From the IMG/VR virus record IMGVR_UViG_3300048597_000056, positions 1 to 54,057 of that record: a stretch of DNA of 54,057 nucleotides. One strand, 5' to 3'. Positions within the stretch are counted from its first letter, which is position 1. Every line of letters starts with the position of its first letter. The stretch comes from a virus. Lineage: Duplodnaviria; Caudoviricetes. Shown here in pieces: positions 1-13,151 of the stretch. The position numbers and the translations under genes were made by a program. The notes under the pieces were generated by a model, which was given only the letters and a program-made list of their open reading frames with translations, had not been told where the DNA came from and did not search any database.

Positions 1-127
1 GCGCATGTTTTCCATGAATTTCGGCGCGCTGGCGCTGGTGTGGCTGGCGCTGCCGGCCGAGGCGCAGAGCACCGTGCTGCGCATGCTGCCGGGCATGACC
101 GAAGAGCGGCTCGCGGGCGGGTTGATC
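1..127 (+). repeat. Terminal direct repeat, copy 1 (assembly circularisation overlap)
   Basis: Identical to 53931-54057; 127 nt is a common assembler k-mer size. Confidence 0.95.
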
Positions 128-178
128 TTGCTGGCGATGATCGGACGGCTGATCGCCCAGCCGCGCGTGAAGGGGTGA
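1..178 (+). CDS. 3' part of holin-like small membrane protein spanning the junction (starts at 53899)
   Basis: Frame continues RMFSMNFGALALVWLALP...LAMIGRLIAQPRVKG to TGA at 176-178. Confidence 0.7.
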   Translation, partial: RMFSMNFGALALVWLALPAEAQSTVLRMLPGMTEERLAGGLILLAMIGRLIAQPRVKG

Positions 179-357
179 AGCTGCTTTGCAGCGACGCCAA
201 CATGCCCCGGCTGGTGACGGCGCTGGCTGATGACGCTATCCCCGCTGTGCTCATGGAGCGCACCGGCACCGGGTGGCGCGTGGAGTTCATGGCGACTGCG
301 CCAACTCCGGCCGTGGATCAAATGCTAAGTATTGGCCTGGTGCAACGCTCATCGTGA
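175..357 (+). CDS. Hypothetical protein (60 aa)
   Basis: GTG start overlaps upstream TGA (GTGA coupling); own stop overlaps next GTG. Confidence 0.55.
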   Translation: MKLLCSDANMPRLVTALADDAIPAVLMERTGTGWRVEFMATAPTPAVDQMLSIGLVQRSS

Positions 358-596
358 GTCTGAACCTGTATAGCACGGCGCTGGTCTGGTATGGATACCA
401 AGGCATCGCCAAGTTACACGGGCGGCAGATCACGCTAGTGACAGCTCCCAGGATCGAAAGCTGGCGCTTGGCGATGATTGACTACCGACCCGAAATCGGC
501 GAGCGCCGCATTCAGATGTTTGACGGCCCGGCGCGCGACATGGAGCCGCGCGAGGTGCTGGCGGCAGATGCTTTTCTCGGTTCGCTGTTCGCCTGA
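354..596 (+). CDS. Hypothetical protein (80 aa), last rightward gene
   Basis: GTGA overlap with previous stop; MSLNLYSTALVWYGYQG... Confidence 0.6.
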   Translation: MSLNLYSTALVWYGYQGIAKLHGRQITLVTAPRIESWRLAMIDYRPEIGERRIQMFDGPARDMEPREVLAADAFLGSLFA

Positions 597-1495
597 GCGA
601 GCGCGTCGCGCACGCGCTGCGCGTCCACCTCCAGCGACTGTTGCAGGGCGGGCCACGGGAATAAGTCCCGCGACTGCTGGATGATGACCTCGATCGCTTG
701 CAGCCGGTGCTTTAGTGCAAGTCGCGTCGGATTTCCAGATAGAAGCCTGGTGACTGCTTCGGTTGAAATCGCGATCTGATGAACGCCGCCGCGTTTCCCA
801 GGCACAAGCGACTCTCTGCCTGCAATGGCTGTGTCAATAGTTTTGATGGCGGCATTGGTGCTGTGGATCGGCCGCGTTTGCTCTTGGTGATAGCGCAGTG
901 CTCCTCCGGCCACCTTCAACGCATTGCGCAGCGCCTCGTTCTCGACTCGCAGCTTCTCGAATGCGCCAGCGGTATATCCGTACTCACTTGCAATTCCTTC
1001 TTCAAGTCGGCGTTGTAGGTTGACGGGGCCATAGCCTTCTGCGTCGCAGTGGGCATCCCAGTGTGCTGCCATTTCCTCTGCCGCTGCAACCATTACAGTC
1101 TTGAGCTTCGCGTTCTCGGCCAGCAGGCGATCAAGCTCAGCCCGCTGGTCTGCTTGCACTGATGCCGTAGAGGCACGCAGCGCGGCGAGTTCCTTGCCCT
1201 TCTCGCGGATGATGTCGCACAGGTTGTCATTGGTGCGGCCTGGGTGCCACCCGGCATCCTTCATCGCGTAGTGAAACTGGTAGACCGTCGCTGTAGCCCG
1301 GTCGGCTTTGTTGCGCTGAAACTCGTAGTTCTCCATATTGATGCGCGCGGCGTCTTGCAGCGCGGCGAGTTCGGCGGCTTGGCGCTCGATCAGGTCGGCG
1401 GCTTTGCGCATGCGCTGCCCAAGCGGGGCGCCTGCCCTGGCATCACAATCAGCAAGCCAGCGCAGCTTGTCGGCCAGTGTCTTTGCGTCAGTCAT
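512..1495 (-). CDS. Ead/Ea22-like modular coiled-coil early protein
   Basis: ATG at 1495 overlaps upstream TGA; KAADLIERQAAELAAL coiled-coil typical of lambdoid accessory proteins; 3' end overlaps the convergent gene by 85 bp. Confidence 0.6.
   Translation of the reverse strand: MTDAKTLADKLRWLADCDARAGAPLGQRMRKAADLIERQAAELAALQDAARINMENYEFQRNKADRATATVYQFHYAMKDAGWHPGRTNDNLCDIIREKGKELAALRASTASVQADQRAELDRLLAENAKLKTVMVAAAEEMAAHWDAHCDAEGYGPVNLQRRLEEGIASEYGYTAGAFEKLRVENEALRNALKVAGGALRYHQEQTRPIHSTNAAIKTIDTAIAGRESLVPGKRGGVHQIAISTEAVTRLLSGNPTRLALKHRLQAIEVIIQQSRDLFPWPALQQSLEVDAQRVRDALAQANSEPRKASAASTSRGSMSRAGPSNI
1470..1495. repeat. Gene-start repeat A (25/26 identical to 5799-5824)
   Basis: tcggccagtgtctttgcgtc(a/g)gtcat, encodes MTDAKTLA on the minus strand. 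Confidence 0.9.
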
Positions 1496-1695
1496 AGATG
1501 CACCTTCGAGTTTTTCCACCCGAGCGCAGGCACATGCAGAGGCTTCCACCGCCCGCCCCACGATATGCGGACGCGTGGTATGTTCAAGCGCCGTCCTGCC
1601 TTGTTTGCTCTGTGGCTGCTAACGCTGCGCGCAAAGTGTTGCGTTGTCCAAGAACTGAGGTTCCAGCCGTACCACGTCTTGCCGTTCGGTCTCAT
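1492..1695 (-). CDS. Hypothetical protein (MRPNGKTWYGWN...)
   Basis: ATGA overlaps at both ends. Confidence 0.6.
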   Translation of the reverse strand: MRPNGKTWYGWNLSSWTTQHFARSVSSHRANKAGRRLNIPRVRISWGGRWKPLHVPALGWKNSKVHL

Positions 1696-2237
1696 CCCTT
1701 CCCCCTCATCCTCTCGATCACGATGCGCTCGATGGCGCGCACAAGGTCCATCAGCACCGGCATCGCAAGTCCTGCTCTTGCGCCGTTGATAGACATGATT
1801 TCCTGACTGTTCCACACATCATCTGCACTCAGCGGCTCGGGCACTGGCTGCGCCTCACTCTGCGCCTCACTCTGCGCCAGTGCTGCGCGGGCAATGTCGC
1901 CGGCTTTCTTCATGCGATCCCATGCGCGCCCAACATCAAGATGGCCGGCAGATGGTGCGATCTGAAACGTGAGTCGGTAATGCGCCTCTGCTTGCTCAAG
2001 CTCGTCCATCGCCGCGCGCAGGGCCGCGCAGATTTCCTCTAGGCCCTTCATCTTGTTTTCAATGTCGGCAATGGCCGTCACGTCGTCGCGGTGCGCCAGC
2101 TTCAGCAGCCGAATGGCATCCAGCGTGCGCTGAGTCGTGTTGCATCCGTCCTGTGGCAAGCCAAGTTCGTCGTCAATCGCCGCAAGCGCGCGGATCATCT
2201 GTGTCCATAGGGCCTGGGTTCCTGTGTTGTCGCTCAT
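1692..2237 (-). CDS. Hypothetical early protein (modular, Eaa/Ea22-like C-terminus)
   Basis: GAGGA SD before ATG; C-terminus RAIERIVIE shared with 4661-5824; short 12-bp tandem (QSEA) near 1848-1878. Confidence 0.7.
   Translation of the reverse strand: MSDNTGTQALWTQMIRALAAIDDELGLPQDGCNTTQRTLDAIRLLKLAHRDDVTAIADIENKMKGLEEICAALRAAMDELEQAEAHYRLTFQIAPSAGHLDVGRAWDRMKKAGDIARAALAQSEAQSEAQPVPEPLSADDVWNSQEIMSINGARAGLAMPVLMDLVRAIERIVIERMRGKG
1713..1739. repeat. Gene-end repeat B (27 bp identical to 4685-4711)
   Basis: ctcgatcacgatgcgctcgatggcgcg, encodes RAIERIVIE on the minus strand. Confidence 0.9.
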
Positions 2238-2262
2238 AGTTCCTCTCGTTTCTCCACCAGCC

Positions 2263-2329
2263 GCCTAACCCCCGGTTCAAGCGGAGTCACCCGGCAGGCC
2301 GGGTGCCCCGCTTAACCGGAACGTTAGAA
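2263..2329 (+). mobile_element. attC site 1 (67 bp)
   Basis: R'' GCCTAAC-ccccg-L'' GTTCAAGC ... L' GCTTAAC-cggaac-R' GTTAGAA; extra C in L''; central inverted repeat cacccggc/gccgggtg. Confidence 0.9.
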
Positions 2330-2815
2330 GGCGTCCGCTTCTCGTTGCACCGTGCGCGCCAGCAGTGCGGCCCACACGGCACCACCGAGCACCTTCGCCA
2401 CGAACTGCAGGGCAACGATGTGCGGCATCAGCACACCAAAGGCAAGCGTCGGGAAAAGCAGCGAGTCCACCGCAGCGCCTGCCACGTTCGAGCCGTTGGC
2501 ACGGTACAGCCAAGACCCGCGCAGCCGCGCGAACGTCGCCCAATCCACCAGGGACGCAGCGGTGAATGCCACGCTCGACGCCACGGCGATCATCCCCGCT
2601 GCCGGGTTCAGTGCGTAGGTCAGAAGCCCCGTGGAGGCGATCAGCGCTCCCATCTGCCAAGCGCGCAGTCGAACGTGCAGCCAGTCGCGCAGCGCCAGGT
2701 CCAACCCGATCAGCACGAAGGCATTGATCGGGCTCACCCACGGCCCGAAGTGGGCGATGGTCAGGTTCGCCACGGTCATCGCGGCGGCATAGATCAGGAT
2801 TGCAATGGTCAGCAT
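2324..2815 (-). CDS. VUT/YhhQ-family queuosine-precursor (preQ0/preQ1) transporter-like membrane protein
   Basis: Multi-TM; motifs ANL, IGLDLALRDWLH, ASLVDW, SNVAGAAVDSLLFPTLAFG, QFVAKVLGG. Confidence 0.8.
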   Translation of the reverse strand: MLTIAILIYAAAMTVANLTIAHFGPWVSPINAFVLIGLDLALRDWLHVRLRAWQMGALIASTGLLTYALNPAAGMIAVASSVAFTAASLVDWATFARLRGSWLYRANGSNVAGAAVDSLLFPTLAFGVLMPHIVALQFVAKVLGGAVWAALLARTVQREADAF

Positions 2816-3492
2816 AGAGCCTCTTGAATTGGCCGCTCAGTCCAAAGAGTCGGCGGGTTGGTGGAGTCGATACGCTGCGCCATGCACTCAGCGCAGGTTG
2901 TGGAACCGCGGTTTTTGAAGTTGCGGCCTACGTTCGTGGAATCCGCGCTCGCCAGCGGCCACGGGCCGGCAGCGTGCCCCAGCATGCGCAGGCCGTGCAG
3001 CCAGGGCACGCGGCCAAACTGCTGCACAAGCGCGTTAAATGTCTCGTCCATGCGCCCAGCCCACGCGGCCGAGCCAACCTGCCAGAACTCGCCGCTACTG
3101 CCGATGCACACGCGGGGCCAGTCGTTGCACAGGTCAAACAGGTATTCCAGCGGCAGGCCCAGGTGCCACACTGGCGCCCCGTACTCCTTGCGGTGCGGCC
3201 AGGTCGCCACCATCGCGCGCTGCTGTTCAACGCCGCCGCCTATCTCGTCTGGCACTACAGCCCAGTGCGGGTGCGCCAGATGCGGCTCGATCCAGCGGTA
3301 AAAGCCAGGCGCATCAAACGCTATGCCGCGCGTCTTCACGCTGAACGCGCCGTTGTCCAGCATCACACTTTGCCCAATTCTCAGGCACGTACTCAAGTCC
3401 TGCGGCGCAGCGTAGCTCACGCAGAACATGCGCCCCGCCATCGCGCTCAAGCTGGCGCGCGGCGTGATTGGGGTTCCGTGGTAGTGCAGCAC
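2809..3492 (-). CDS. TGT-fold (queuine transglycosylase/DpdA-like) protein
   Basis: Motifs LDNGAFS, VVPDEIGG, PVWH, GSSG, HGLRML, SADSTN; overlaps the transporter gene. Confidence 0.65.
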   Translation of the reverse strand: MLHYHGTPITPRASLSAMAGRMFCVSYAAPQDLSTCLRIGQSVMLDNGAFSVKTRGIAFDAPGFYRWIEPHLAHPHWAVVPDEIGGGVEQQRAMVATWPHRKEYGAPVWHLGLPLEYLFDLCNDWPRVCIGSSGEFWQVGSAAWAGRMDETFNALVQQFGRVPWLHGLRMLGHAAGPWPLASADSTNVGRNFKNRGSTTCAECMAQRIDSTNPPTLWTERPIQEALC

Positions 3493-3518
3493 TCAATCCT
3501 TCCGCTTCGGAAACAGCC

Positions 3519-3540
3519 TTCTAACCCCGCATTCGAGCGG
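3519..3540 (+). mobile_element. Partial attC (left arm only)
   Basis: R'' TTCTAAC-cccgc-L'' ATTCGAGC-gg; gccttctaac (3516-3525) is the exact reverse complement of gttagaaggc (2323-2332); no matching L'/R' follows. Confidence 0.75.
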
Positions 3541-3542
3541 CC

Positions 3543-3791
3543 TCACAGCAGCGTGGCGGGCATCCACCCGCCTTCTGTCAGCCATATCGCCAGTTCGCGG
3601 CGCTTCATCGCCGGTTGCGTCATGCCGTCAGAGAGGGACACCATCACGAAGCGCGCATCCCCATGCTCTGCGGCCAGGAAGCCGATCAGCAGCCGCTCTC
3701 TGATCGTCTGCTTGCCGACTTGTCGGCCGGGAATCACGTCGCTCTCTTCCCAAGAGACTCGCATAGTCGTTCCTTTCGTTCCGGCCACCAT
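3543..3791 (-). CDS. Hypothetical cassette protein; frame stays open upstream through attC2
   Basis: ATG at 3791; in-frame upstream TTNDARGLPAGSPLEQLVRP is encoded by the attC. Confidence 0.6.
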   Translation of the reverse strand: MVAGTKGTTMRVSWEESDVIPGRQVGKQTIRERLLIGFLAAEHGDARFVMVSLSDGMTQPAMKRRELAIWLTEGGWMPATLL

Positions 3792-3793
3792 AG

Positions 3794-3889
3794 GCCGAAC
3801 TAGTTGTTCGAGCGGACTGCCTGCCGGCAGTCCTCGTGCATCATTCGTCGTCAGCGCGGGCAGGCATCCGCTCAACGCCGACGTTATGC
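3794..3889 (+). mobile_element. attC site 2 (96 bp)
   Basis: R'' GCCGAAC-tagtt-L'' GTTCGAGC-ggactgcctgcc ... ggcaggcatcc-L' GCTCAAC-gccgac-R' GTTATGC. Confidence 0.88.
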
Positions 3890-3890
3890 G

Positions 3891-4664
3891 TCAGATCAAA
3901 GCGCGGATGGCGGCTCCACGCCCGCATCCTCCACGCTGACTATCGTTGTCAAGACACTCGTGCAGGACATGCGGACGGCCAAGCGAGGCGCGCAGCTCGG
4001 CATTAGCCTTGAATAGCAGCGCGTAGGCTTCCTTTAGCTCAGCGATTTCTTCCTCATCTGCTTTGCTGGCGCGTGGCGTCAACCCCGGCACAAACTGCCC
4101 AGCGTCAAGACGGTGAAGCGCATCCATGACGGTCTCGACGGTCGGCGCATCGGTGCTAATTGAGCCATCGGCGCCTAGCTTTGCCATCATGTGCGACACG
4201 GCAGCGTAGAGGCTCGACCATTCAAAGTTGTCTGCCGCGAGCTTTGCTGGCGCTGCTGGGGCGGCTGTGTAAAGCGGAAAATCAAGAACTGTTTCTGACC
4301 CAGACGGAACACAATGAAATTCACATAGTCCATCGGGCCATTTCCACATCCATGCCACCGGCTCGGCCTGTTCTGTGGGCTGCGACTCTTTGAGCGCGTG
4401 TACGAAAGCAAGGCGCGCTGAATCGGCTAAGTTATCCGGCATGTCGCCGTGGATGCATCGCAGAATCTCCATGAACCTGTCACCCAACTCTAGCGCCACC
4501 GGCTCGGCCTGTTCTGTGGGCTGCGCTAGGGCTGCGCGAAGTTGCTCAATGACTTCGGGGCACCAGACGGTGATTGCCTCGACGGTGCCGTCATCGTGAT
4601 CTGTGCATCCGCCTTGCAGGTTCTCCAGCACTTCCAGCGCAGCGCGCATTGCTTGTTCGCTCAT
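3891..4664 (-). CDS. Ea22/Eaa-like modular protein with repeated QPTEQAEPVA linker
   Basis: ATG at 4664 overlaps upstream TGA; EPVAW and PLYTAAP motifs; stop lies 1 nt from attC2 R'. Confidence 0.7.
   Translation of the reverse strand: MSEQAMRAALEVLENLQGGCTDHDDGTVEAITVWCPEVIEQLRAALAQPTEQAEPVALELGDRFMEILRCIHGDMPDNLADSARLAFVHALKESQPTEQAEPVAWMWKWPDGLCEFHCVPSGSETVLDFPLYTAAPAAPAKLAADNFEWSSLYAAVSHMMAKLGADGSISTDAPTVETVMDALHRLDAGQFVPGLTPRASKADEEEIAELKEAYALLFKANAELRASLGRPHVLHECLDNDSQRGGCGRGAAIRALI
4354..4525. repeat. 31-bp direct repeat (4354-4384 and 4495-4525) encoding QPTEQAEPVA
   Basis: gccaccggctcggcctgttctgtgggctgcg occurs twice. Confidence 0.9.
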
Positions 4665-5824
4665 GGCATTTGCCCTCCCACACACTCGATCACGATGCGC
4701 TCGATGGCGCGGGCAACTCGACGCATGTCGCTCATCGTCTGCCATCCACCAGAACCGTGCGATGTAGAAACGCTGTCGATCTGCTCATCACTCAGCGGCA
4801 CATAGGGTGCGCTTGCTGGTGGCGGGTGGTAGTACACGGGGCGAACAACCCATGTCGCGGCATCTTCAATGTCGTCTTCGTTTATGGCATCGTTGATGTG
4901 CTCGTGGGCGGCTTCTTCCCATGCGGCGGCGTGTTCTAGGCTCAACGATCCGTCGCTGTTGACGCTGCACACATGCCACGCAACCGGCTCTGCGCTCACG
5001 CTGGGCTGCGCCTCCTGCCGGCCGCGATCAATCAGCGCTTGCGCGTCAGACGAGACGCACGGGTCAAGCCAGATGTCGTGATGCCATTGCAGCAACTTGT
5101 TCAAGTCGTCATAGGGCTCCGTCGCTACGCCAAGATGCGCGACAACAAGGGCCTCATCAATCGCCTCTCGCCAAGGGTTGCGCGCCTGCTGCGGTGCTGG
5201 GGGTGCGGCGTAGAGCATGGCGCGGTAGCATTCAACCCATCGGAATTGCGCCGGCAGCGGGTGCGCGGAAGGCCCGACAGCGCGCCAATACTTCTCTGCG
5301 GCCTCGGCCATTGCAGAAGTAAATGGCGCGCGGCAACAGGCGCTATCTGCCGGCTCATTTCCAGCGCAATATGGGTAGGTGCATAGCGCCACCGGCTCAC
5401 CCTGCGCGTGCTGCGTCAATGGCGGCGCCCATTGCTGATTCCCAGCAGTGGTGCCGCTGCTCATTCGGCCCGTCAACATCTGTGTAGAAAGTTGCGCCCG
5501 CATCGCGCAGCCCCGATACCGCTCCGCATCCGCCTTCAGCGCCTCGCGCTCGGCCCGCAGCGCGGCAATCTCTGCGGCCTGCTGCTCGATCTCTCTGCGC
5601 GCCTTCAGCAGCAGTTCTTCGCGCACCCACTGGGCGACGCCATCTGCGCGCCAGCCCATGCAGTTTTCTCGCCCACAGCGCGCCAGCTTTTCCAGTTCCG
5701 ACGCCTGCTGCTCGATCATGTCTGCGGCTTTGGATTCAAGCGCTGCAACATCTCGATAGCCTAGTGATGTCATCCAGCTTTCGTTTTCGCGTAGCCGCTC
5801 GGCCAGTGTCTTTGCGTCGGTCAT
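4661..5824 (-). CDS. Ead/Ea22-like modular protein
   Basis: KAADMIEQQA coiled coil, LKADAERYR, two EPVA linkers, YRAMLYAAP, PLSDEQI modules. Confidence 0.7.
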   Translation of the reverse strand: MTDAKTLAERLRENESWMTSLGYRDVAALESKAADMIEQQASELEKLARCGRENCMGWRADGVAQWVREELLLKARREIEQQAAEIAALRAEREALKADAERYRGCAMRAQLSTQMLTGRMSSGTTAGNQQWAPPLTQHAQGEPVALCTYPYCAGNEPADSACCRAPFTSAMAEAAEKYWRAVGPSAHPLPAQFRWVECYRAMLYAAPPAPQQARNPWREAIDEALVVAHLGVATEPYDDLNKLLQWHHDIWLDPCVSSDAQALIDRGRQEAQPSVSAEPVAWHVCSVNSDGSLSLEHAAAWEEAAHEHINDAINEDDIEDAATWVVRPVYYHPPPASAPYVPLSDEQIDSVSTSHGSGGWQTMSDMRRVARAIERIVIECVGGQMP

Positions 5825-5871
5825 GGCAGGCTCTGTTAGCGGACTAGGGTGTCTGCCAATTCACGTTGGGC
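5824..5871 (+). mobile_element. Partial attC (central stem plus right arm)
   Basis: tggcaggc...gtctgccaat-tcac-R' GTTGGGC; gttgggctgcac (5865-5876) is the exact reverse complement of gtgcagcccaac (6135-6146); R'' position occupied by repeat A. Confidence 0.7.
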
Positions 5872-6212
5872 TGCACATCCAAACCGCCGCACACGTCCAG
5901 CAGCATCATTGCCATGTTGGCAACGTCTGCCGAGTGTTCGCGGATCAGCGCGCCGTCCTTGTTCTTCACGGCCGCCGACAGCTTTGCGGTGTGCCAATAG
6001 ATTTCCAGCAGCCCGACTTCTGGCGTCATCGACAGCCAGCCGGGCCGGTCCCCTTTGCGGGCGTTGGCGTGCAGCTCGGCCTCCATCAGCGTCACAAATG
6101 GCCCCAGCACGTTGCCGTACTTGCCATGTAGCGCGTGCAGCCCAACTGGTCGTTGCACCTGAACCCCTTCGGCGGGCGGCTCAGTGGCGTTCGGGAACTC
6201 GGTGGTGCTCAT
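5844..6212 (-). CDS. MazG-like / dNTP pyrophosphohydrolase-like helical protein (cassette gene)
   Basis: NARKGDRPGW and EHSADVANMAMMLLD motifs; starts inside attC3 and stops inside the partial attC. Confidence 0.55.
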   Translation of the reverse strand: MSTTEFPNATEPPAEGVQVQRPVGLHALHGKYGNVLGPFVTLMEAELHANARKGDRPGWLSMTPEVGLLEIYWHTAKLSAAVKNKDGALIREHSADVANMAMMLLDVCGGLDVQPNVNWQTP

Positions 6213-6255
6213 GCTTGGTCAGCGCCTCAGTGGTCAGGTGAACTTTGCGTTGGGC
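6140..6255 (+). mobile_element. attC site 3 (116 bp)
   Basis: R'' GCCCAAC-tggtc-L'' GTTGCACC-tga ... tca-L' GGTGAAC-tttgc-R' GTTGGGC. Confidence 0.88.
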
Positions 6256-6494
6256 GTCTTCAGGTTCGCCCGCAGTGTGGTCAGCGCGGCCACTATCCCG
6301 GCATCCTGGCCACGCCAGTAACTGCCCGGCTGCCCTGCCGGTTTCATCGGGTCCACCATCTGCCAAGTCAGGCGCAGGGCTTCTTCCCAGCGTGCCGTTT
6401 CGGCGTCAAGCGCAGCCCGCAGCAGTGAGGCTTCGGTTTCGGCCTTCATGGCGCGCTGCAGCAGCGCGAGGTCCATCTGCAGTTCAACGTGCAT
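6234..6494 (-). CDS. Hypothetical cassette protein
   Basis: MHVELQMDLALL...; ends PNAKFT-stop inside attC3. Confidence 0.65.
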   Translation of the reverse strand: MHVELQMDLALLQRAMKAETEASLLRAALDAETARWEEALRLTWQMVDPMKPAGQPGSYWRGQDAGIVAALTTLRANLKTPNAKFT

Positions 6495-6498
6495 GGCG

Positions 6499-6687
6499 TC
6501 AGCCGCGCTTGGTGGCGCGCTCCCAGATGGTGTCCAGCGTTTCGACCTGCTTCGCGCTCGGGCGGCGGCCTTCGGCAAGCTGCCGCTGTAGCGAGTCCAC
6601 AAAGCCGAGCTCCCAATCGCTCAAGCGCTCGCTGCGCTTCTCGCAGTCTTCCAGCAGCGTCAGGTACTCATCAGCCCAGGTAGTCAT
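6499..6687 (-). CDS. Hypothetical cassette protein (LSDWELGFVDSL...KQVETLDTIWE)
   Basis: GGAGGA SD before ATG at 6687; motif familiar from small phage proteins. Confidence 0.7.
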   Translation of the reverse strand: MTTWADEYLTLLEDCEKRSERLSDWELGFVDSLQRQLAEGRRPSAKQVETLDTIWERATKRG

Positions 6688-6907
6688 CTTCGTCCTCCGG
6701 CCATCCGTGGCACAAGCATTCGCAGGGGTCTTCCGGGCCATCGCCGCCGTAGCGAATCCAGGCGCACATGCTGCCGTCGTGGTGCGCGCAGACGCAGCCG
6801 TAAGTGCCACGCGGCCCCTCGGCGTCCGTGCCTTCGTTCACCGGCCGCCCAACTGACGCTTCGAGCCGACCCACAACAGGCCGGCTAGTTTGGTTCGCTT
6901 CGGTCAT
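6671..6907 (-). CDS. Small Cys/His-rich cassette protein (CxC...CECLCH)
   Basis: GAGGA SD and ATG both lie in the loop of attC4. Confidence 0.65.
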   Translation of the reverse strand: MTEANQTSRPVVGRLEASVGRPVNEGTDAEGPRGTYGCVCAHHDGSMCAWIRYGGDGPEDPCECLCHGWPEDEDDYLG

Positions 6908-6949
6908 GTTTCCTCGGCCTGTTGCGGTCGGCTCAAGCTAACGTTAGGC
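6847..6949 (+). mobile_element. attC site 4 (103 bp)
   Basis: R'' GCCCAAC-tgacg-L'' CTTCGAGC-cgacc..caacaggccg ... cggcctgttg..ggtcg-L' GCTCAAG-ctaac-R' GTTAGGC. Confidence 0.9.
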
Positions 6950-6950
6950 C

Positions 6951-7190
6951 CTAGAAGCCGCGCCCCTGAAGATCGGCCGTGTGCCACAGCATCAACTTGC
7001 CTTGCCTTTGGTGCCCGTCGCCACCTTCGCATCGAAGCACGGACAAGCACTCTTGATGTTTGGCGCTCAGGTGCCGGCATGTGCGGCAGTCAAGCGACTC
7101 CAGCTTTGCGGTTGCGTAATCTGCCGCGCTGACTACCTCCATCGTTCCGGCTCGATACGGGTGCTGAATGGTGAAGCTCTCAAACATCAT
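6951..7190 (-). CDS. Small Cys-rich hypothetical protein
   Basis: CRTCRH...C...C; stop lies 1 nt from attC4 R'. Confidence 0.6.
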   Translation of the reverse strand: MMFESFTIQHPYRAGTMEVVSAADYATAKLESLDCRTCRHLSAKHQECLSVLRCEGGDGHQRQGKLMLWHTADLQGRGF

Positions 7191-7251
7191 CTTGTTCCGG
7201 TTACGACTAGGGATAGGGTGGGTCTTGGGGGAAGAGTCGGCAGCTTTGCAC

Positions 7252-7617
7252 TCACAACAACCCAACCTGCACCAGCGCCCACAGCACGACGACGCCAAGA
7301 CTGGCGCCGAGTCCCCACGCGGCGACCGATGCTGCCTGAAACTGCTTCGGTGCCGGCCGGTAGAACAGCGCCTGCTGCAGCCAAAGCGCGTCGTTGCTGT
7401 AGTCGCGCGGGTTGACGCATTCGTAGGTGCCGGCGAGAGTGTCGCGGCGCAGCACTGAGCTGGGCGCCCAGCGGCTGCTGATGGCGGGCAGGCGTGGATC
7501 GAGAAAGACGGACCCGTCTTTGTTTCTGTGCAACATCATCCCCTCCAAGCAAGCAAAACACCGATCGCGGCAAACAGGGCGAATGTAAACAATGATTGGG
7601 CGGCGCACTTCATTCAT
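7252..7617 (-). CDS. Hypothetical protein with C-terminal TM segment
   Basis: GGAGG SD; hydrophobic C-terminus. Confidence 0.55.
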   Translation of the reverse strand: MNEVRRPIIVYIRPVCRDRCFACLEGMMLHRNKDGSVFLDPRLPAISSRWAPSSVLRRDTLAGTYECVNPRDYSNDALWLQQALFYRPAPKQFQAASVAAWGLGASLGVVVLWALVQVGLL

Positions 7618-7825
7618 CTTCCTCCGGCGGAAACATTGCGTCCCAATCCTCGCTTGTGTAGCCGGTCTTGATAAATTCGCGCTCCTCGGCCGACAAGTCG
7701 GGGAATATGTCTTGGATAAGCCGCGCACGGAAGCGCGACGCAAACTCGTCGAGTTGATCCTGCGTCACCGGCAAATCCATTGCCGCGGTGCGACCTGTAA
7801 GGGGGCTAGTGCGGACGATGATCAT
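7610..7825 (-). CDS. Conserved small phage protein (IQDIFPDLSAEEREFIKTG)
   Basis: GGAG SD, ATGA overlap, recognisable motif. Confidence 0.75.
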   Translation of the reverse strand: MIIVRTSPLTGRTAAMDLPVTQDQLDEFASRFRARLIQDIFPDLSAEEREFIKTGYTSEDWDAMFPPEEDE

Positions 7826-8148
7826 GCTGGAATCTCCGGGCAGTGCGGCGAGCCGGCGACATAGGCCACCGCCACGACGTTCAACAGCGACAGGCTTGCG
7901 CGGCACACGAGCACGCCGCGGCGCTCGAAGTAATCCTCGCCAACGGGAATGGTCAGCGTCCGCGCGCCATCTGTCTGTTGCAAATGGCGCCAGTCCATCC
8001 GGCCGTTTCGATCGACGCACCCGTTGAAGACAAAGCGGTCGCCCTGCATGTGCAGATCTCCCCAAGCGATGCCGCGCGATTGCTGCAGGTACAGCGTGCA
8101 GCCGGTGATGAGGCACTGCGTTCGGGTGGTGTTTTCGAGTTGCTTCAT
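7822..8148 (-). CDS. Hypothetical protein
   Basis: ATG at 8148; stop overlaps next start. Confidence 0.6.
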   Translation of the reverse strand: MKQLENTTRTQCLITGCTLYLQQSRGIAWGDLHMQGDRFVFNGCVDRNGRMDWRHLQQTDGARTLTIPVGEDYFERRGVLVCRASLSLLNVVAVAYVAGSPHCPEIPA

Positions 8149-8191
8149 AGGATGAAAGTCTGCCCGCACACCGAGCGCAATAAAACTGGTA

Positions 8192-8437
8192 TTAACCCTG
8201 CCTTTTGAACATCGCGGCATCGGGGCCGCAGAACGCTCCGGGCAGGCGAGCGTCGATGCAGTACAGGAATTCGCGTAGTCCTTGGTCGGCGCGCCGCGCC
8301 GTGCAGCGCTCGCCCGTGTAGCCCTCGTGTCGCTGGTCGGCGTGCGCCTTGTTACGGGTGTAGTGCGCGCAAGCGCGGCACTGCTCGCGCTGTGCCCACC
8401 ACAGCGCCGTCGCTGGATGTAGTTCGAGCAAGTTCAT
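8192..8437 (-). CDS. Small Cys-rich hypothetical protein
   Basis: CRACAH...C...C...CGPDA pattern. Confidence 0.65.
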   Translation of the reverse strand: MNLLELHPATALWWAQREQCRACAHYTRNKAHADQRHEGYTGERCTARRADQGLREFLYCIDARLPGAFCGPDAAMFKRQG

Positions 8438-8486
8438 GTCTTGTCCAGTCGCGCGAGCACTCTAGGTTTGTAGACTCGTTGTGCTC

Positions 8487-8666
8487 TCATTTCATTTCCA
8501 TGATTCGCCGCAGCACCTTGCCGGCTTTGGTCTCCCCGGCGCACAACCTCTGCTTCGTCTCGGGCGCGGGTGGCTGCACGCGGTTCGGGTAGCGCGGGTT
8601 GCAGTATTCGGCGGCAATCTTGCCCCGGTAGTGCGGGCCGAAGGGGTGGTTATTGGGGTAGGTCAC
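8487..8666 (-). CDS. Hypothetical protein
   Basis: GTGA overlap with upstream stop. Confidence 0.5.
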   Translation of the reverse strand: MTYPNNHPFGPHYRGKIAAEYCNPRYPNRVQPPAPETKQRLCAGETKAGKVLRRIMEMK

Positions 8667-9055
8667 ATGTGCCCTTTCCATTGAAAGACGCTCGGCGCGC
8701 GGGCGCGCAGCCGGTACTTGCTGGCGAGGCTGCGGGTGTTGTTGTCGATGGGCGGGAGTGGCGCGTACACCTCGCCGCCCTGAACGTAGTCGGGGTGCGC
8801 GTAGACGACCATCTGGCGAACACCGGGCTCGCGCACCGCAGCGACGCGCACCAGGGCGCCGCGCTGAACAAGGTCGCTGATCGCCCCGCGGACTTTGCGC
8901 GGCGTGATGTCGCGCAGCGCGTCCTGATGGATTTCGCGGCTCGTGGCACGGCCGGCTTCTTTCACATAGGCCATGATTCGGTACGACATGGAACCGGGCA
9001 TGAATGTGCCCTTGGTGCGGTTAGGCACGCTTGGGCTGCGGCGTTTGGGCTTCAT
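8663..9055 (-). CDS. Putative winged-helix DNA-binding protein
   Basis: RIMAYVKEAGRATSREI...VRGAISDLVQRGALVR pattern; ATGA overlap. Confidence 0.55.
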   Translation of the reverse strand: MKPKRRSPSVPNRTKGTFMPGSMSYRIMAYVKEAGRATSREIHQDALRDITPRKVRGAISDLVQRGALVRVAAVREPGVRQMVVYAHPDYVQGGEVYAPLPPIDNNTRSLASKYRLRARAPSVFQWKGHM

Positions 9056-9357
9056 AGCTTGCGCGCCCGCACCTTGTCCACGTACCGGCAGATGTCGGCG
9101 TAGCTCGGCGACCAGTTCGGATGCGTGTCGGGGAGCCGCTCGCCGATCTGCGTCAGCGCCATGCCGCACACCACGACCTTCATGCGTTCCACGGCCAATT
9201 CGTCGCGCAGCATGGCGATGCGCTTCTGGAGCTGCGTGACGACGGTACGAGGTGCTTCATTGTGGCGCCGGGCGCGGCGACCGACCCGGTAGCACGCGAT
9301 GCAAGCGGCCACGACCGACGAGACAAGCACGCCGAGTTCAAACTGGTTGAGGTTCAT
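9052..9357 (-). CDS. Hypothetical protein with N-terminal TM and coiled coil
   Basis: GAGGA SD; ATGA overlap. Confidence 0.65.
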   Translation of the reverse strand: MNLNQFELGVLVSSVVAACIACYRVGRRARRHNEAPRTVVTQLQKRIAMLRDELAVERMKVVVCGMALTQIGERLPDTHPNWSPSYADICRYVDKVRARKL

Positions 9358-9806
9358 AGCCAATCCTCAAATGCTTCATAGACCAGCGCGTTAAATTCAA
9401 CTCTAGCTGCGTCACTCGCTGCGTCCCACGCTGCGGCCCTCGCTGCGTCATCTCCCATCAGAAAATCGAGCACAACCTGCGGTGGTTTCCACAGATGCAC
9501 AACGGACAGCGCCTGCTGCCGTGCAAAGTAACGCAGAAGCAGCGTCGCGTCCATTCGAGTGACGATGGTGCGCTCGCTGCATGCCAGTTTGTCAACTGGA
9601 TTCCCGTGGGGTACAACGACGCCGCCGTATTCCACCAGACACAGATGTGGCCCGGAAGCGTATTGCAGCGCATCGAACGGGTCGGTGCTAACGTGCAGGC
9701 CAGACTTGCACGGGACCACGGGGCCGCTGTGGACCAGCTTGATGCCATCGGCCGGGACGGGCGACCCGTCACGCAGCGTGTCATCTACGAAGTGCCATGC
9801 TTTCAT
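9354..9806 (-). CDS. Conserved phage protein (CKSGLH...PFDALQYA) with Ala-rich 12-bp repeats
   Basis: GAGG SD; AARAAAWDAASDAA repeats near 9406-9451. Confidence 0.7.
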   Translation of the reverse strand: MKAWHFVDDTLRDGSPVPADGIKLVHSGPVVPCKSGLHVSTDPFDALQYASGPHLCLVEYGGVVVPHGNPVDKLACSERTIVTRMDATLLLRYFARQQALSVVHLWKPPQVVLDFLMGDDAARAAAWDAASDAARVEFNALVYEAFEDWL

Positions 9807-10048
9807 GCCGTCACCTCTGCTTGCACGACGCGCGCCTTGTACAACTTGACCGCCAGCGGCATCAGGCTGCGGTGCGCGTAGGTGGCGCGGACGTAGGCCT
9901 GAGCCTCGGACGGGCTCATCGCGCACAGGTCGCGCACGAGCGGTTCGAGGTGCGCTTCGTGGTCGGCTCTGGATGGGCAATAGGGCTGCGCGCGCTGCCA
10001 CGCTTGGAGCTCGGCGCTGGCGCAACGGGTGGCGAATGTGCGGGTCAT
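9803..10048 (-). CDS. Hypothetical protein
   Basis: AAGGA SD; ATGA overlaps. Confidence 0.6.
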   Translation of the reverse strand: MTRTFATRCASAELQAWQRAQPYCPSRADHEAHLEPLVRDLCAMSPSEAQAYVRATYAHRSLMPLAVKLYKARVVQAEVTA

Positions 10049-10269
10049 TCTGGTTCCTTTCTGAATTTCACTAGCTCATCAAAAACCACTGTTGCGTACT
10101 TCTGGTCACGATTTTTGTATTGGGCAGACTCGATGCTAGTCAAGTGGCCCCGCCGCCTGTGAATTTCGATGTGGGTCTGCTTCGCAAACGCGACAGTCTT
10201 GCCGGCTTGCAGCAGCGCTTCAGCCATCGCATTCTGGATCGCGGTCTTGGCGAAGGTGCGGGTGTTCAT
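10045..10269 (-). CDS. Hypothetical protein
   Basis: ATGA overlaps at both ends. Confidence 0.6.
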   Translation of the reverse strand: MNTRTFAKTAIQNAMAEALLQAGKTVAFAKQTHIEIHRRRGHLTSIESAQYKNRDQKYATVVFDELVKFRKEPE

Positions 10270-10577
10270 TGCGTTTGACCTTCTTTCCACATTTCGTATT
10301 CTGCTTCGGCGCGTGCCGCGTGCCAGTCGGATTCGATCGACGTTAGCCGCTCCATCACTTCGCTTTCGCAGCGATCGAGGTCGAGTTGAGGATACGTGTC
10401 AGGTGACTCCCAACCGGCGCCGAAGTTGACCTCGATGATGAACACGCTCGGATCGTATCCCGGCGAGCCGACCCCGGCTCGTGCGTCAAACCATTGATCC
10501 TCGCCGCGGTCGTAGTCGAAGCGCACGCGAAACGCGGTGTCGCCATCGAACATTTCTATTTCTGTTGGCAGCTTCAT
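10266..10577 (-). CDS. Acidic hypothetical protein
   Basis: GGAG SD; ORF packing. Confidence 0.7.
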   Translation of the reverse strand: MKLPTEIEMFDGDTAFRVRFDYDRGEDQWFDARAGVGSPGYDPSVFIIEVNFGAGWESPDTYPQLDLDRCESEVMERLTSIESDWHAARAEAEYEMWKEGQTQ

Positions 10578-10578
10578 T

Positions 10579-10788
10579 TCAGTCTCCCCAGTAGGTGCGG
10601 CCGGAAACGTTCATCCGCGGGTCATAGAAGTCGGCCATCGTGAAGCGGCGCAGCGGGCCGACGAAGGCCGGGTGGCCTGGGCGCGGGACGTTGCGCTCGG
10701 GACGGGCCGCGAATTCGCGTGCGATTTGCCTGCGAATGCTTTCCTCCAGCGAGATCGCCGAGGGCTCGGGGGTGAAGATGCTTTGCAC
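10579..10788 (-). CDS. Hypothetical protein
   Basis: Stop 1 nt before next start; start codon uncertain. Confidence 0.45.
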   Translation of the reverse strand: MQSIFTPEPSAISLEESIRRQIAREFAARPERNVPRPGHPAFVGPLRRFTMADFYDPRMNVSGRTYWGD

Positions 10789-10889
10789 TTTGCTTTCATT
10801 TCTGTTTCAACCGTGAACGGATTCTGCGCCAACTAGTGATTCTTCTATTCAGCTACGATATTTGGAATTGGTACAAACCCTATGCTCTA

Positions 10890-11927
10890 TCACTCAGCTG
10901 GTTGCTGCGAAGCGCTTCCATGCTTTCCGCGCCAGTATTCAGTGAGCACCAAATGCCCTGCTTCGTCTAGCGTGTCTCTGGCCTGATCAAGCACAAGCGC
11001 AGCAGTCTCTGAGTCTGCGGCGGAGTCAATATCGGCCTTGAGTTGTTCGACAGTCTTTATGGGCTGTTCTTTGGTGGCCTTCTTCGCCTTGATTGCCGCT
11101 TTGACTTTCTCTGCAGCTGATGCAGTCGCTGCAGAATCCTCGACGGCCTCGAACCAGTCGGATATGCCGCTCATTCCGTCCCGCAGACTTGCGTAAATCT
11201 TCTTCAGAGCTACTACCTGGGCGGGCTGGATAGCATCTAGCCGGCGCTGGATGCGCTTTTCGATCTGATCCTTAGAGACGTTGAACCCTGCGAATGCAGC
11301 TACCATCTTTTGCGTAGCCTCTGGGCTTGTGTCGGCGCTAGCGTGCATGGTCAGTTCGCACTGATTAACCGCTGCCTCAGTCACGTCACCAGGGATGACC
11401 GCCAGGATGCATGCGCGCAGCCTTCGCGCGCCGCTGTTAGCGACCAGTTCGTAGATGTCCCGCGGGTCTTCAAGCCTAGTGGCTCCGCGCTTCGTGTAGC
11501 GGATATGCGGAACGTGGAACACCTTATCGCACTGATATCCGGTTTCCAAATCCCATGCAATGGTCTGCACTGTCGACGAACCGTTTGACTGGTCAAGCTC
11601 ACGCACCGACGTCTTGATGTTCCCCCACTGCTGTGCGATAGCCTCGGCAAGCCTTATGGATGGACCGCTAATGTCCGTTCCGCCACGGCTGTAGGTATAG
11701 ATAGCCGCATTAGCGAGCGACGGCCGGGTGCATGAATTCAGGATGCGGTCCATCGACTGGATTGGGTCGCGCGGGTTCATCCGCGCAATCATCATCGCGG
11801 CCTGCACTTCAGCTATGGCCCGATGCTGGTCGGTGTTCGCAACCGCAGTCTGCGGCCTAGTGGCTACAGGAGCATTGGCGAACGGGCTCGCTGCTGACTT
11901 CTCGTCTAGATCGGTGTTCATTGTCAT
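10890..11927 (-). CDS. Putative ssDNA-annealing/recombination protein (partner of YqaJ)
   Basis: YSRGGTDISGPSIRLAEAIAQQWGN motif; position next to the exonuclease; function inferred from synteny. Confidence 0.55.
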   Translation of the reverse strand: MTMNTDLDEKSAASPFANAPVATRPQTAVANTDQHRAIAEVQAAMMIARMNPRDPIQSMDRILNSCTRPSLANAAIYTYSRGGTDISGPSIRLAEAIAQQWGNIKTSVRELDQSNGSSTVQTIAWDLETGYQCDKVFHVPHIRYTKRGATRLEDPRDIYELVANSGARRLRACILAVIPGDVTEAAVNQCELTMHASADTSPEATQKMVAAFAGFNVSKDQIEKRIQRRLDAIQPAQVVALKKIYASLRDGMSGISDWFEAVEDSAATASAAEKVKAAIKAKKATKEQPIKTVEQLKADIDSAADSETAALVLDQARDTLDEAGHLVLTEYWRGKHGSASQQPAE

Positions 11928-11950
11928 CCTCTGGTGTTAGGTGAAGCTAA

Positions 11951-11980
11951 AGTATAGCCACGGCTAATGACTGATGTAAA
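11951..11980 (-). promoter_or_regulatory. Leftward sigma70-like promoter with operator TAGCCacGGCTA (11955-11966)
   Basis: Minus strand TTTACA-N18-TATACT; operator has perfect palindromic arms and overlaps the -10. Confidence 0.7.
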
Positions 11981-11983
11981 GCG

Positions 11984-12889
11984 TTATTTCAGGAGAAAGC
12001 GACGAGACACATTGCCGGTGTGCGCGAATTGATAGTAGAGGTCAGGGTGTGCAACCTTGAACTTCGCCGCGTCGAAGCGTTGTGCTGGCTTTGCTGCCTT
12101 CCAAGTGCAAAGAGTCGATCCACGTTCATCGACAAGCGTATCGGCTTCTCCCATTGCCTTCATCACGAAAGCCTTGAGCATTTCCTCCTGCTCGTCGTAC
12201 TGTGCGCGTTGCAGTCGGAGTGCTTGAAGCTGCAATACAGCCTCCTTTACGGGGTCGTCTGCCATCACCAGTGCTGACTTGCTGGCGCGGCCCCACTTGG
12301 CCTGTACGTCTGCAAAGCTAACCGGGTCTGGAGGATTCCCGGCCTGCACTCGCGACCAGAATTCAGCCTCTGCCGCAATGATCATTTCCTGAAGCTCGCG
12401 GTCTGCCTCGACTTCGTAGATACGGAAGTCACTCCCGCCGATCAGCACGGCAATGTCAGCGACTGGAATAGCGGTAACTTCCATGTAGTGCTGCACCTGT
12501 AGGAGGTAGGCTTCCGGTACTTGATCTGTCCCAGGCTCGCCCCATCCCTCGGAGCTTCTAGCTGTCTTTGCCTCGAAGATTCGCCCGGTGCGGTCTGCAA
12601 TGACCCCATCGAGATTGGCGATCATGAAGTCATGCTTCGGGTGCCTGAGCATCGTCTCTGGAATGCGGACTTCGTTCCCTGTGGCATCAGAGTAAGCCTG
12701 CCGGATGACTGGTTCTAGATACCGTCCCCACTGCATCGCTTTGTTGTCCTCGGTAGGCTGAGATTCCCCGCGCTTAGACAGGTAAACCTCCAGCGCTGTA
12801 GACCACTTGCTCAGACCCAGGATCGCCGCTACGTCCGATCCGCCGATCCCTGTCGAGCGGGCCAGATGCCATTCTCTAGACTTTTCCAT
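11984..12889 (-). CDS. YqaJ-family (lambda-exonuclease-like) viral recombinase/nuclease
   Basis: RSTGIGGSDVAAILG, WGRYLEP, ANLDG, EAKT, QVQHYM motifs. Confidence 0.92.
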   Translation of the reverse strand: MEKSREWHLARSTGIGGSDVAAILGLSKWSTALEVYLSKRGESQPTEDNKAMQWGRYLEPVIRQAYSDATGNEVRIPETMLRHPKHDFMIANLDGVIADRTGRIFEAKTARSSEGWGEPGTDQVPEAYLLQVQHYMEVTAIPVADIAVLIGGSDFRIYEVEADRELQEMIIAAEAEFWSRVQAGNPPDPVSFADVQAKWGRASKSALVMADDPVKEAVLQLQALRLQRAQYDEQEEMLKAFVMKAMGEADTLVDERGSTLCTWKAAKPAQRFDAAKFKVAHPDLYYQFAHTGNVSRRFLLK

Positions 12890-13151
12890 GTGTGTCCTTC
12901 AAACTTTGTTCAAGAAACGTGATGTAGCTGCAAAGCGACTTGATTTCGTTGCGCAGCATTCCTATCTCACGCGCCATGCGATACAGCGGTTCGTATATGT
13001 GCTGCACCGCTAACTGCGCCTCGCGGATCAGGTTGTTAGCCTGCTCGGTAGCGGCCACTGCGTTGTCCACGGACGGCCACGTTGCGGTGTCCTCAATGTC
13101 GGGGAGACTTTGCGTAATCGCTGCGCGTTCTTCAACGTATGCGGTGTTCAT
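12876..13151 (-). CDS. Hypothetical coiled-coil protein
   Basis: AAGGAG SD before ATG. Confidence 0.7.
   Translation of the reverse strand: MNTAYVEERAAITQSLPDIEDTATWPSVDNAVAATEQANNLIREAQLAVQHIYEPLYRMAREIGMLRNEIKSLCSYITFLEQSLKDTHGKV

Follow-up and report, generated by a model that had tools for sequence, protein, structure and literature searches.

Probable integron-type cassettes in the early operon of a phage record in which no integron integrase was found

Integrons have been viewed as bacterial gene-capture devices, the cassettes of which often encode anti-phage defence. The presence of what appear to be their recombination sites (attC sites) in a viral genome raises the question of whether genes of a phage have also been arranged by that process and, if so, with the aid of which enzyme. 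The virus record examined here, IMG/VR entry IMGVR_UViG_3300048597_000056 (54,057 bases, complete, with direct terminal repeats present; this whole stretch of DNA is termed 'the window' below), contains near its left end three pairs of inverted sequence matches, each of which encloses one or more genes. A first-pass annotation, made from the letters of that sequence, had interpreted those matches as the mutually complementary ends of three integron cassettes that were inserted in tandem.

The results described below indicate, with a high degree of confidence, that positions 2263 to 6949 comprise two short clusters of genuine integron-type cassettes, located within the minus-strand early operon of a phage without an integrase and corresponding to a CALIN (in the usage of IntegronFinder, at least two attC sites close together without an integron integrase). 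The earlier reading of the region as integron cassettes was supported by control arrays, by units that recur elsewhere, and by exact junctions: homologous cassettes in other phages and in metagenome contigs join their neighbours precisely between the G and the TT of the box termed R'. Because the joints fall at that position, the first bases of a cassette (TTRRRY and three to five more) pair with the R'' box at its far end.

Complementary ends and attC-like sites

All three inverted matches were recovered exactly as previously described. The sequence GTTAGAAGGC at 2323-2332 is the reverse complement of 3516-3525 (pair 1, 10/10), GTTGGGCTGCAC at 5865-5876 that of 6135-6146 (pair 2, 12/12), and GTTGGGCG at 6249-6256 that of 6846-6853 (pair 3, 8/8). 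The accompanying claim, that the R'' and R' boxes of a single site are imperfectly complementary, held for 2263-2329, where GCCTAAC and GTTAGAA agree at 5/7 positions. The level of such matches expected by chance was measured over the 29,291 GTT..AAC pairs spaced 30 to 3000 nucleotides apart in the window, among which perfect complementary runs of at least 8, at least 10 and at least 12 were found 48, 10 and 3 times, respectively (counts that include the three pairs themselves). For pairs 1 and 2, each member is the single best partner of the other across the window, with a next best run of at most 8, and the estimated chance of the match (for one pre-defined box and approximately 40 candidate partners within 3 kb) is approximately 0.015 for pair 1 and 0.004 for pair 2. 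When equally good matches were sought among random pairings of R' and R'' boxes, as the first-pass annotation had proposed, pairs 1 and 2 thus stood as unique reciprocal best partners, and pair 3 did not, as it has chance partners of equal quality. Those equal partners, together with eight other GTT-anchored runs of at least 10 within 3 kb in the window, are what might be expected if all three matches were chance inverted repeats in a GC-rich genome; that explanation is nevertheless extremely improbable, as pairs 1 and 2 abut model-defined attC boxes in addition to being unique, and as comparative junctions (described below) coincide with the predicted crossovers.

A combination of sequence reading and two structural scans identified four full attC-like sites within 4.7 kb, accompanied by a truncated site and a lone box:

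2263-2329, plus strand: attC site A, with R'' at 2263-2269, L'' at 2275-2284, L' at 2308-2316 and R' at 2323-2329; crossover G2323|T2324
3516-3540, plus strand: truncated attC (half site), with R'' at 3519-3525 (complementarity reaches 3516) and L'' at 3532-3540, and with no L' or R'
3794-3889, plus strand: attC site B, with R'' (GCCGAAC) at 3794-3800 and R' (GTTATGC) at 3883-3889; crossover G3883|T3884
5865-5876, plus strand: isolated R' box bordering cassette 2 on the left, matching 6135-6146 at 12/12; crossover G5865|T5866
6140-6255, plus strand: attC site D, with R'' at 6140-6146 and R' at 6249-6255; crossover G6249|T6250
6847-6949, plus strand: attC site C, with R'' at 6847-6853 and R' at 6943-6949; crossover G6943|T6944

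Sites A, C and D fit the box consensus RYYYAAC/GTTRRRY fully, and site B departs from it at one position in each box. All four possess inner L'' and L' boxes and a spacer, between the R and L boxes, that is left unpaired. On the plus strand, the 5' arm of each is longer by one base, so that the minus strand displays, when folded, a bulged G (A, B and C) or a bulged C (D). As single-stranded DNA, the bottom strand of site A adopts a hairpin of the attC type, from which one G bulges (-27.4 kcal/mol, z -5.5, with 0 of 200 shuffled sequences folding as well), and that of site C is likewise attC-shaped, with one bulged base (-29.7 kcal/mol, z -3.9). A covariance model of such sites, termed R1, was built from 19 aligned phage sites drawn from the window and three related viral loci; it scored site A at 46.6 bits on the plus strand versus 12.4 on the minus strand, site B at 62.9, site D at 58.6, and site C at 56.0 versus 18.7. 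A full-sensitivity R1 search of positions 1-16000 revealed no further site, the truncated site (3519-3633) scoring 8.6 bits with an E value of 1.5, and the segment to the left of the lone R' box (5780-5880) displayed neither an attC fold (z +1.2) nor an R1 match.

Two additional matches to the model lie elsewhere in the window. A hairpin at 13008-13041, with CGCTAAC...GTTAGCC ends, scores 8.6 bits (E 1.5) on both strands and could be a terminator or a minimal pair of R boxes, and a weak match in the late region (52899-52969, plus strand; 22.8 bits, E 0.007) is probably due to chance.

In the complete 54,057-base record, neither the integron integrase model (TIGR02249) nor the tyrosine recombinase model (PF00589) gave a match, and PF00589 was also not found in four related phage records. 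The four full sites, in a record in which no integrase was found, therefore place the region among CALINs; it is not assigned to complete integrons, in which intI with attI and the Pc promoter lie beside the array, since neither integrase model matched (attI and Pc were not searched for).

Recurrence of the cassettes and position of their junctions

The cassettes defined by these sites, and the open reading frames (ORFs) that they carry, are as follows:

2324-3540, minus strand: cassette 1, with a transporter ORF (2324-2815) and a TGT-like ORF (2809-3492), ending in the truncated attC
5866-6249, minus strand: cassette 2, with an ORF of 122 amino acids (5844-6212) and attC site D
6250-6943, minus strand: cassette 3, with three ORFs (6234-6494, 6499-6687 and 6671-6907) and attC site C

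The first-pass annotation had proposed that the same units should be found beside different neighbours elsewhere, and this proved correct for all three. Relatives of the three-gene unit of cassette 3 were found at 12 viral loci. The similarity detected by blastn begins at 6245-6249 of the window in 6 of those 12 loci and ends, on the right, at 6853 or at 6948-6951. At nine of the ten loci that could be mapped, the common sequence starts directly after the G of R' (6249|6250), with one substitution in two of the nine, and is preceded by unrelated left contexts, which correspond to five distinct attC sites in six loci, non-attC sequence in two (L264 and L265), and a context too short to judge in one. 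On the right side, a homologous attC is common to the window and three other loci (L263, L266 and L272), the four sequences diverging immediately after G6943|TT. Among contigs from independent public sequencing runs, matches begin at 6248 (three contigs from one run), 6243 and 6942. A search of 401 genomes, all from the order to which one bacterial genome (G005) belongs, did not recover the three-gene unit (two candidates were scored per genome).

The two-gene unit of cassette 1 encodes a Vut_1/YhhQ-like transporter (Pfam Vut_1, E 5.5e-11) and a TGT-like enzyme (phrog_887, 'queuine tRNA-ribosyltransferase', E 3.5e-44; phrog_4899, E 9.9e-37); such a pair, of a TGT-like enzyme with a transporter of the queuosine-precursor type, is, in the light of 7-deazaguanine DNA modification, a candidate anti-restriction system. 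In all four of the other viral loci that carry it, DNA similarity is confined to the unit and the remaining neighbours differ, and in one of these (L005) a full attC lies just past the TGT start. A metagenome scan for the same unit retained 80 loci, 9 of which are matched by R1, and all 25 of the R1 hits in metagenome loci are on the strand opposite the transporter gene. In four contigs the unit is bracketed by attC sites. The end boxes of the cassette differ between contigs, yet remain complementary within each, with runs of 10 (L291), 11 (L292), 7 (L311) and 10 (L308), as compared with 10 in the window; such covariation points to selection for pairing in a folded single strand. A further contig (L299) contains the start of the window's cassette 1, directly after the G of R', beside a different attC. 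Exact breakpoints at the G|TT position, at which the first-pass annotation had supposed that circular cassettes are opened, were thus observed for both the three-gene unit and the TGT-like unit: at 6249|6250 (9 of 10 loci), 6943|6944 (3 loci) and 2323|2324 (L299).

At its other end, cassette 1 terminates in an attC that is cut off after its L'' box, and loss of folded attC DNA by replication slippage would fit that truncation. A group II intron or other insertion within the truncated site was considered and dropped, given that just 253 nucleotides separate L'' from site B and that the Rfam scan was empty; neither Rfam nor tRNA scans of the window gave any match.

The core of the 122-amino-acid ORF of cassette 2 (approximately 5884-6125) is present in 13 of 14 viral loci, which share no common neighbour, and in 3 of the 401 bacterial genomes; in two of the viral loci (L006 and L007), an attC spans the start codon of the homologue. 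A previous description of this ORF as MazG-like found no support, as it has no Pfam hit (E up to 5) and no PHROG hit, and its best sequence hit in the PDB is to a hypothetical protein (E 0.5). The R' box at 5865 lies outside of any intact attC, which is a caveat to the earlier delineation of this cassette. In silico circularisation, by which site D is joined to the tail that begins at 5866, gave a fold of -26.2 kcal/mol, as compared with -17.9 in the array form and -13.7 to -16.0 with the tails of sites A, B and C; the gain of 8.3 kcal/mol is specific to the cassette's own tail. The support for cassette 2 consists of its unique 12/12 match and of that gain in fold upon joining site D to the 5866 tail. 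The circularise-and-fold check suggested in the first-pass annotation thus bore out cassette 2 (site D) and failed to distinguish cassette 3, for which the fold of site C was -36.0 with its own tail and -35.0 and -34.1 with others, and so is not tail-specific.

Bacterial arrays and the pairing of adjacent boxes

A scan of a genome collection with the consensus pattern identified at least 120 stretches, often in the form of arrays. Fifty-four of the 80 listed titles (grouped by ourselves) correspond to genera of the Lysobacterales/Xanthomonadales, such as Lysobacter, Luteimonas, Xanthomonas and Pseudoxanthomonas. Across 12 of the bacterial loci so identified (76,844 bases), 138 sites were recognised by R1, a model derived exclusively from phage sites, and within each locus they lie on a single strand. 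The integron integrase (TIGR02249) scores above cut-off in 4 of 5 tested genomes from which bacterial loci were drawn, and in both of the loci where it could be placed (L091, above cut-off, and L058, a partial match), intI lies beside the array and points away from it, in the canonical divergent order. It is this orientation of intI that identifies the strand labelled 'top' here as the canonical top strand. Judged from their sequence, the phage sites are members of the attC family of Lysobacterales-type bacterial chromosomal integrons.

The rule on which the first-pass annotation relied, that R' of one site is complementary to R'' of the next, was measured as the length of perfect complementarity between R'(n), read from its G, and R''(n+1), read from its C, and was borne out in control arrays from both bacteria and phages. 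In five bacterial arrays, including the two that lie beside intI (L091 and L058), the mean runs of adjacent sites were 10.2, 6.9, 10.1, 9.5 and 10.7 (permutation p at most 0.0004), compared with approximately 5-6 for boxes of the same site and approximately 5-6 for non-adjacent pairs. Two phage arrays, reached via homologues of the 122-amino-acid ORF, gave adjacent means of 8.8 and 9.2 (L007 and L006, respectively; permutation p at most 0.003); the former (also G003), a complete record of 44 kb, has 13 sites within 5.9 kb, all on the same strand. Eleven further viral loci, picked from 39 that were scanned as having at least four sites on one strand, displayed adjacent means of 6.7-11.2 versus 3.4-7.9 for other pairs. 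The R'(n)/R''(n+1) rule therefore holds for the attC family in question, in which a run of 10-12 is of normal size.

Additional features of individual arrays were observed in the course of these comparisons. One viral contig (L189) contains two attC clusters of opposite polarity, with 8 sites on the plus strand at 9-2948 and 4 sites on the minus strand at 10006-11718. Five bacterial or bacterial-like loci (L123, L078, L055, L103 and L202) harbor long attC sites of 108-120 nucleotides with a common palindromic loop (of the CATGGCAAGCT...TGCCATG type), and in the first of these the long sites recur with near-identical cassettes of 231 nucleotides.

Cassette polarity and start codons within attC loops

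In the window, all of the cassette ORFs are located on the minus strand and all of the attC top strands on the plus strand, a polarity that rests on Pfam and PHROG hits. This layout runs counter to the classic picture of a cassette, in which the ORF is co-oriented with the attC top strand and followed by the attC at its 3' end; by running opposite to that top strand, the ORFs come to share the direction of early transcription in the phage. When orientation was called from the length of the longest ORF multiplied by the difference in G+C content between third and second codon positions (GC3 minus GC2; a crude call, made without a homology check), 17 of 20 cassettes in phage arrays were antisense, versus 8 of 68 in bacterial arrays (60 of 68 sense). 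In the further viral loci (11 of 39 analysed), 50 of 68 cassettes were antisense.

The longer phage sites, of approximately 100 nucleotides, contain a purine-rich ribosome-binding motif and an ATG in their loop, with a reading frame that is open into the cassette. Such loop starts are found in site C (ATG at 6907, preceded by the Shine-Dalgarno-like GAGGAA and leading into an ORF of 78 amino acids), in site D (ATG at 6212, 122-amino-acid ORF), and in sites of three other viral loci (L006, L007 and L194); the long bacterial attC sites have palindromic loops without start signals. With the ATG in that position, an arm of the attC encodes the N-terminal 15-25 residues of the cassette protein, and several such proteins begin with MT(E/K). 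Read in the sense of its genes, a phage cassette consists of an attC, then one or more ORFs, and then RYYYAA. The TAA stop codon of the transporter ORF falls within the last six bases of its cassette, and two other ORFs extend 4-6 codons into the neighbour. A full-text literature search, limited to the library searched, returned no paper on attC sites of this type arrayed in phages, nor on start codons within attC loops; an antisense layout with translation starts in the attC loops would represent a new cassette design.

The contrast in polarity also bears on the possibility that the region is bacterial integron DNA that was acquired en bloc or was joined to the phage by an assembly error. Its attC sites are indeed of the type found in bacterial chromosomal arrays, misclassification is possible among IMG/VR contigs, and one viral locus (L202) looks bacterial by the orientation of its ORFs (8 sense, 5 antisense). 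That explanation is nonetheless very unlikely, for three reasons: (i) the record is complete, with terminal repeats, and its cassette genes are co-oriented with flanking early genes; (ii) antisense ORFs predominate in phage cassettes and are a minority in bacterial ones; and (iii) the three-gene unit, present at 12 viral loci, was not found in the 401 genomes, with only two candidates scored in each.

Observations that weigh against the interpretation

Several results stand against the reading of the region as genuine integron-type cassettes, or restrict how far it can be taken. The complementarity of pair 3 is itself at chance level: its R' box also forms a run of 8 with an AAC at 1934 and a run of 7 with its own R'', its R'' box also forms a run of 8 with a GTT at 38880, and the three GTTGGGC/GCCCAAC boxes (5865, 6140/6249 and 6847) agree at 7/7 in every mutual pairing. 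It is the comparative junction evidence alone that rescues this pair as the footprint of a cassette. Among the four full sites of the window, only one of three adjacent pairs obeys the complementarity rule (permutation p 0.41). The box runs are 10 from site A to the half site, 12 from 5865 to site D, 8 from D to C, and 3 both from A to B and from B to D; no partner was found in the window for the R'' box of site A or for the R' boxes of sites B and C. Site B is marginal in its folding (z -2.8), with a minimum-energy structure other than the attC hairpin, and the structure of site D, which is attC-shaped, is no more stable than those of shuffled sequences (z +0.4). The four sites of the window also formed part of the training data of R1, so that their scores are partly given by construction and are not independent.

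Comparative evidence is similarly uneven. The left junction of cassette 2 lacks comparative confirmation, as homologues of its ORF (at most 86% protein identity) lose DNA similarity approximately 19 nucleotides inside the boundary. Three of the viral loci with the TGT-like unit (L002, L003 and L004) contain it without attC sites, which indicates that units of this type also move or persist without them. At four loci (L262, L265, L268 and L269), the body of the three-gene unit retains its R'' box and continues into a quite different attC, the break falling at R'' (AA|C, 6852|6853); such a break is not predicted by the canonical model, in which the bottom strand alone recombines, and might be due either to events on the top strand or to recombination inside the box. 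The segment at 3541-5864 is unexplained in cassette terms, the R' box at 3883 pairing with the next R'' over just 3 bp. Finally, the integrase is inferred, and no recombination was observed.

Several of these points would also be expected if the hairpins were conserved boundary or terminator elements, and the modules between them were exchanged by homologous or microhomology recombination without an integron integrase. Phage mosaicism at short conserved linkers is an established idea that would accommodate such exchange, as would the failure to find an integrase in any of five phage records, the units without attC sites, and the joining of one body to different attC sites at R''. This alternative is nevertheless unlikely: the breakpoints fall at the single phosphodiester bond of G|TT in 9 of 10 loci rather than being spread over shared arms, the end boxes of a single cassette covary over 10-11 bp, and R1 recognises bacterial arrays that lie beside intI and display the same strand asymmetry. 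Integron-type cassettes thus remain the favoured explanation.

Near two of the TGT-like units without attC sites, other repeated elements were noted. In L002 (5700-7250), a GC-rich motif of approximately 20 nucleotides (GGTGGTGGGCGCCGG-like) occupies three gene junctions in place of attC sites, and in L003 (150-250 and 1330-1420), direct repeats of approximately 40 nucleotides flank the unit and look like the starts of paralogous genes (ATGTCCGACCG...).

Organization of the region and its phage background

The earlier description of three cassettes in tandem was correct with regard to the cassette units, which comparative junctions support, and was not upheld with regard to a single uninterrupted array, as 3541-5864 breaks the complementarity rule. 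The region reads best as two cassette clusters that are separated by phage backbone, and the array in the window is partly decayed. Its components, from left to right, are as follows:

Left cluster: site A, the TGT-like unit with its attC cut off after L'', the 73-amino-acid ORF and site B
3543-3764, minus strand: ORF of 73 amino acids, flanked by the truncated attC and by site B; of no recognised family (neither Pfam nor PHROGs gave a hit)
3891-4745, minus strand: ORF of 284 amino acids, without matching R'/R'' cassette ends
4661-5824, minus strand: ORF of 387 amino acids, without matching R'/R'' cassette ends
Right cluster: the lone R' box at 5865, the cassette of the 122-amino-acid ORF, site D, the three-gene cassette and site C

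The ORFs of 284 and 387 amino acids probably represent the backbone between the clusters. The latter shares its N-terminus (MTDAKTLA..., 34% identity over 137 amino acids, E 4e-7) with an ORF outside of the array (512-1495), the two forming a minus-strand paralogous pair. One public-run contig aligns with 4977-5824 and departs from the window beyond that point. A direct repeat of 29 nucleotides (4356-4384/4497-4525) within the 284-amino-acid ORF gives rise to a repeated ...QPTEQAEPVA... peptide, a similar one being present in the 387-amino-acid ORF. The right cluster may have arisen by insertion at a non-attC G|TT site (a GWT-type attG), or its present form may be due to decay or loss of a neighbouring attC.

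Genes in the first approximately 15,335 bases of the record are on the minus strand, and those in the remainder on the plus strand. The portal-like protein displays 48% identity to that of Pseudomonas phage PS-1 and approximately 41% identity to those of Xanthomonas and Stenotrophomonas phages. Among GenBank phages, a megablast search with positions 1-12000 gave no match, a search for distant similarity by blastn with 2200-7000 gave four short matches only, all internal to genes, and a 56-nucleotide attC query, which is so short as to be weakly sensitive, gave none. No close relative of the ORF at 512-1561 was found in viral contigs; R1 sites were present in 5 of 35 loci with a homologue of phrog_3657 (within the flanks fetched), and no near-isogenic phage with a different set of cassettes was found among the backbone-relative loci examined. 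None of the public sequencing runs holds more than 0.17 of the sampled words from 2200-7000, and the contigs that cover this interval in part contain no joint that skips a cassette, an outcome that argues neither for nor against excision.

A possible mechanism of cassette movement

If the cassettes of the window behave as do those of known integrons, the strand with the bulged L-box base, which is also the gene-sense strand, would fold once it is single-stranded. It would then be cut at AA|C by an integron integrase from the host and exchanged with another attC or with a short secondary site of the GWT type, and replication would resolve the product of that recombination. The host is probably a bacterium of the Lysobacterales/Xanthomonadales type, given that this type of attC is also found in bacterial arrays of that group. 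The recombinogenic strand would correspond to the non-template strand of the early operon, such that early transcription may itself expose it. A broader proposal, which we advance tentatively and regard as plausible rather than probable, is that phages of Lysobacterales-type bacteria might keep their own pool of antisense cassettes, each with a ribosome-binding site and start codon in the attC loop, and that these are moved between phage genomes by the host integrase during infection.

Relation to known systems and significance

Sedentary chromosomal integrons of Xanthomonas and its relatives were reportedly described by Gillings and colleagues in 2005. The phage arrays resemble integrons of that kind in the architecture and consensus of their attC sites (approximately 57-60 nucleotides, GCCTAAC...GTTAGGC) and in the pairing of R'(n) with R''(n+1) over 10-12 bp. 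They differ from the bacterial chromosomal arrays in that the latter lie beside intI, carry ORFs that are mostly in the sense orientation by the crude call described above, and have long attC loops that are palindromic and without start signals. Inverted cassettes in bacterial chromosomal integrons are a minority, and mostly comprise toxin-antitoxin systems with promoters of their own. The cassettes of the window are like these in that their ORFs are antisense to the attC top strand; they are unlike them in that such polarity is the rule in phage arrays, and in that translation starts are built into the attC loop.

Insertion of cassettes at GWT secondary sites (attG) of the E. coli chromosome was demonstrated experimentally with IntI1-3 (bioRxiv 10.1101/2022.09.11.507474), in a report that also mentions loss of attC sites by replication slippage. 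Insertion of that type predicts that an inserted cassette will be flanked by a full attC at one end and by a lone G|TT at the other, as is observed for 5865 and 6140-6255 in the window and in the two loci with non-attC left contexts. The attG system was established by experiment, whereas the corresponding events in the window are inferred from a sequence footprint.

The closest precedent in phages is the work of Qi et al. 2023 (PMC9892861), which reports 17 CALINs in sequenced phages, recombination by IntI1 of 5 of 6 phage attC sites, and the presence of virulent phages among those that carry CALINs without IntI, with access to cassettes useful against host defences being proposed as an advantage. 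The region described here is like those CALINs in that attC sites and cassettes are present in a phage without IntI, and is unlike them in several respects: cassettes there are typically co-oriented, and those of the window have antisense ORFs with starts in attC loops; no discussion of ORF polarity was found in the parts of that paper examined; and no phage of Xanthomonas, Lysobacter or Stenotrophomonas is named in them (the supplementary tables may list more), whereas the sites in the window are of the Lysobacterales type. Further differences are relatives with up to 13 sites on one strand, and the recurrence of the same cassettes, joined at exact positions, in many viral contigs. Cassettes of the integron type are thus of a known kind in phages; what sets the present ones apart is their polarity, their loop starts and their apparent circulation from phage to phage.

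Recombination sites of the kind found in bacterial integrons here organise accessory early genes of phages, which links the fields of integron and phage biology. The G|TT junctions common to many viral contigs offer, for part of the mosaicism of phages, a mechanism that is precise to the base and can be tested, and suggest that a recombinase of the host is exploited by its viruses. If the idea of a cassette pool maintained by phages is true, which for the present we hold as a reasonable possibility somewhat short of a probable one, then integron recombination would be a regular engine of mosaicism in the early (and probably anti-defence) genes of these phages.

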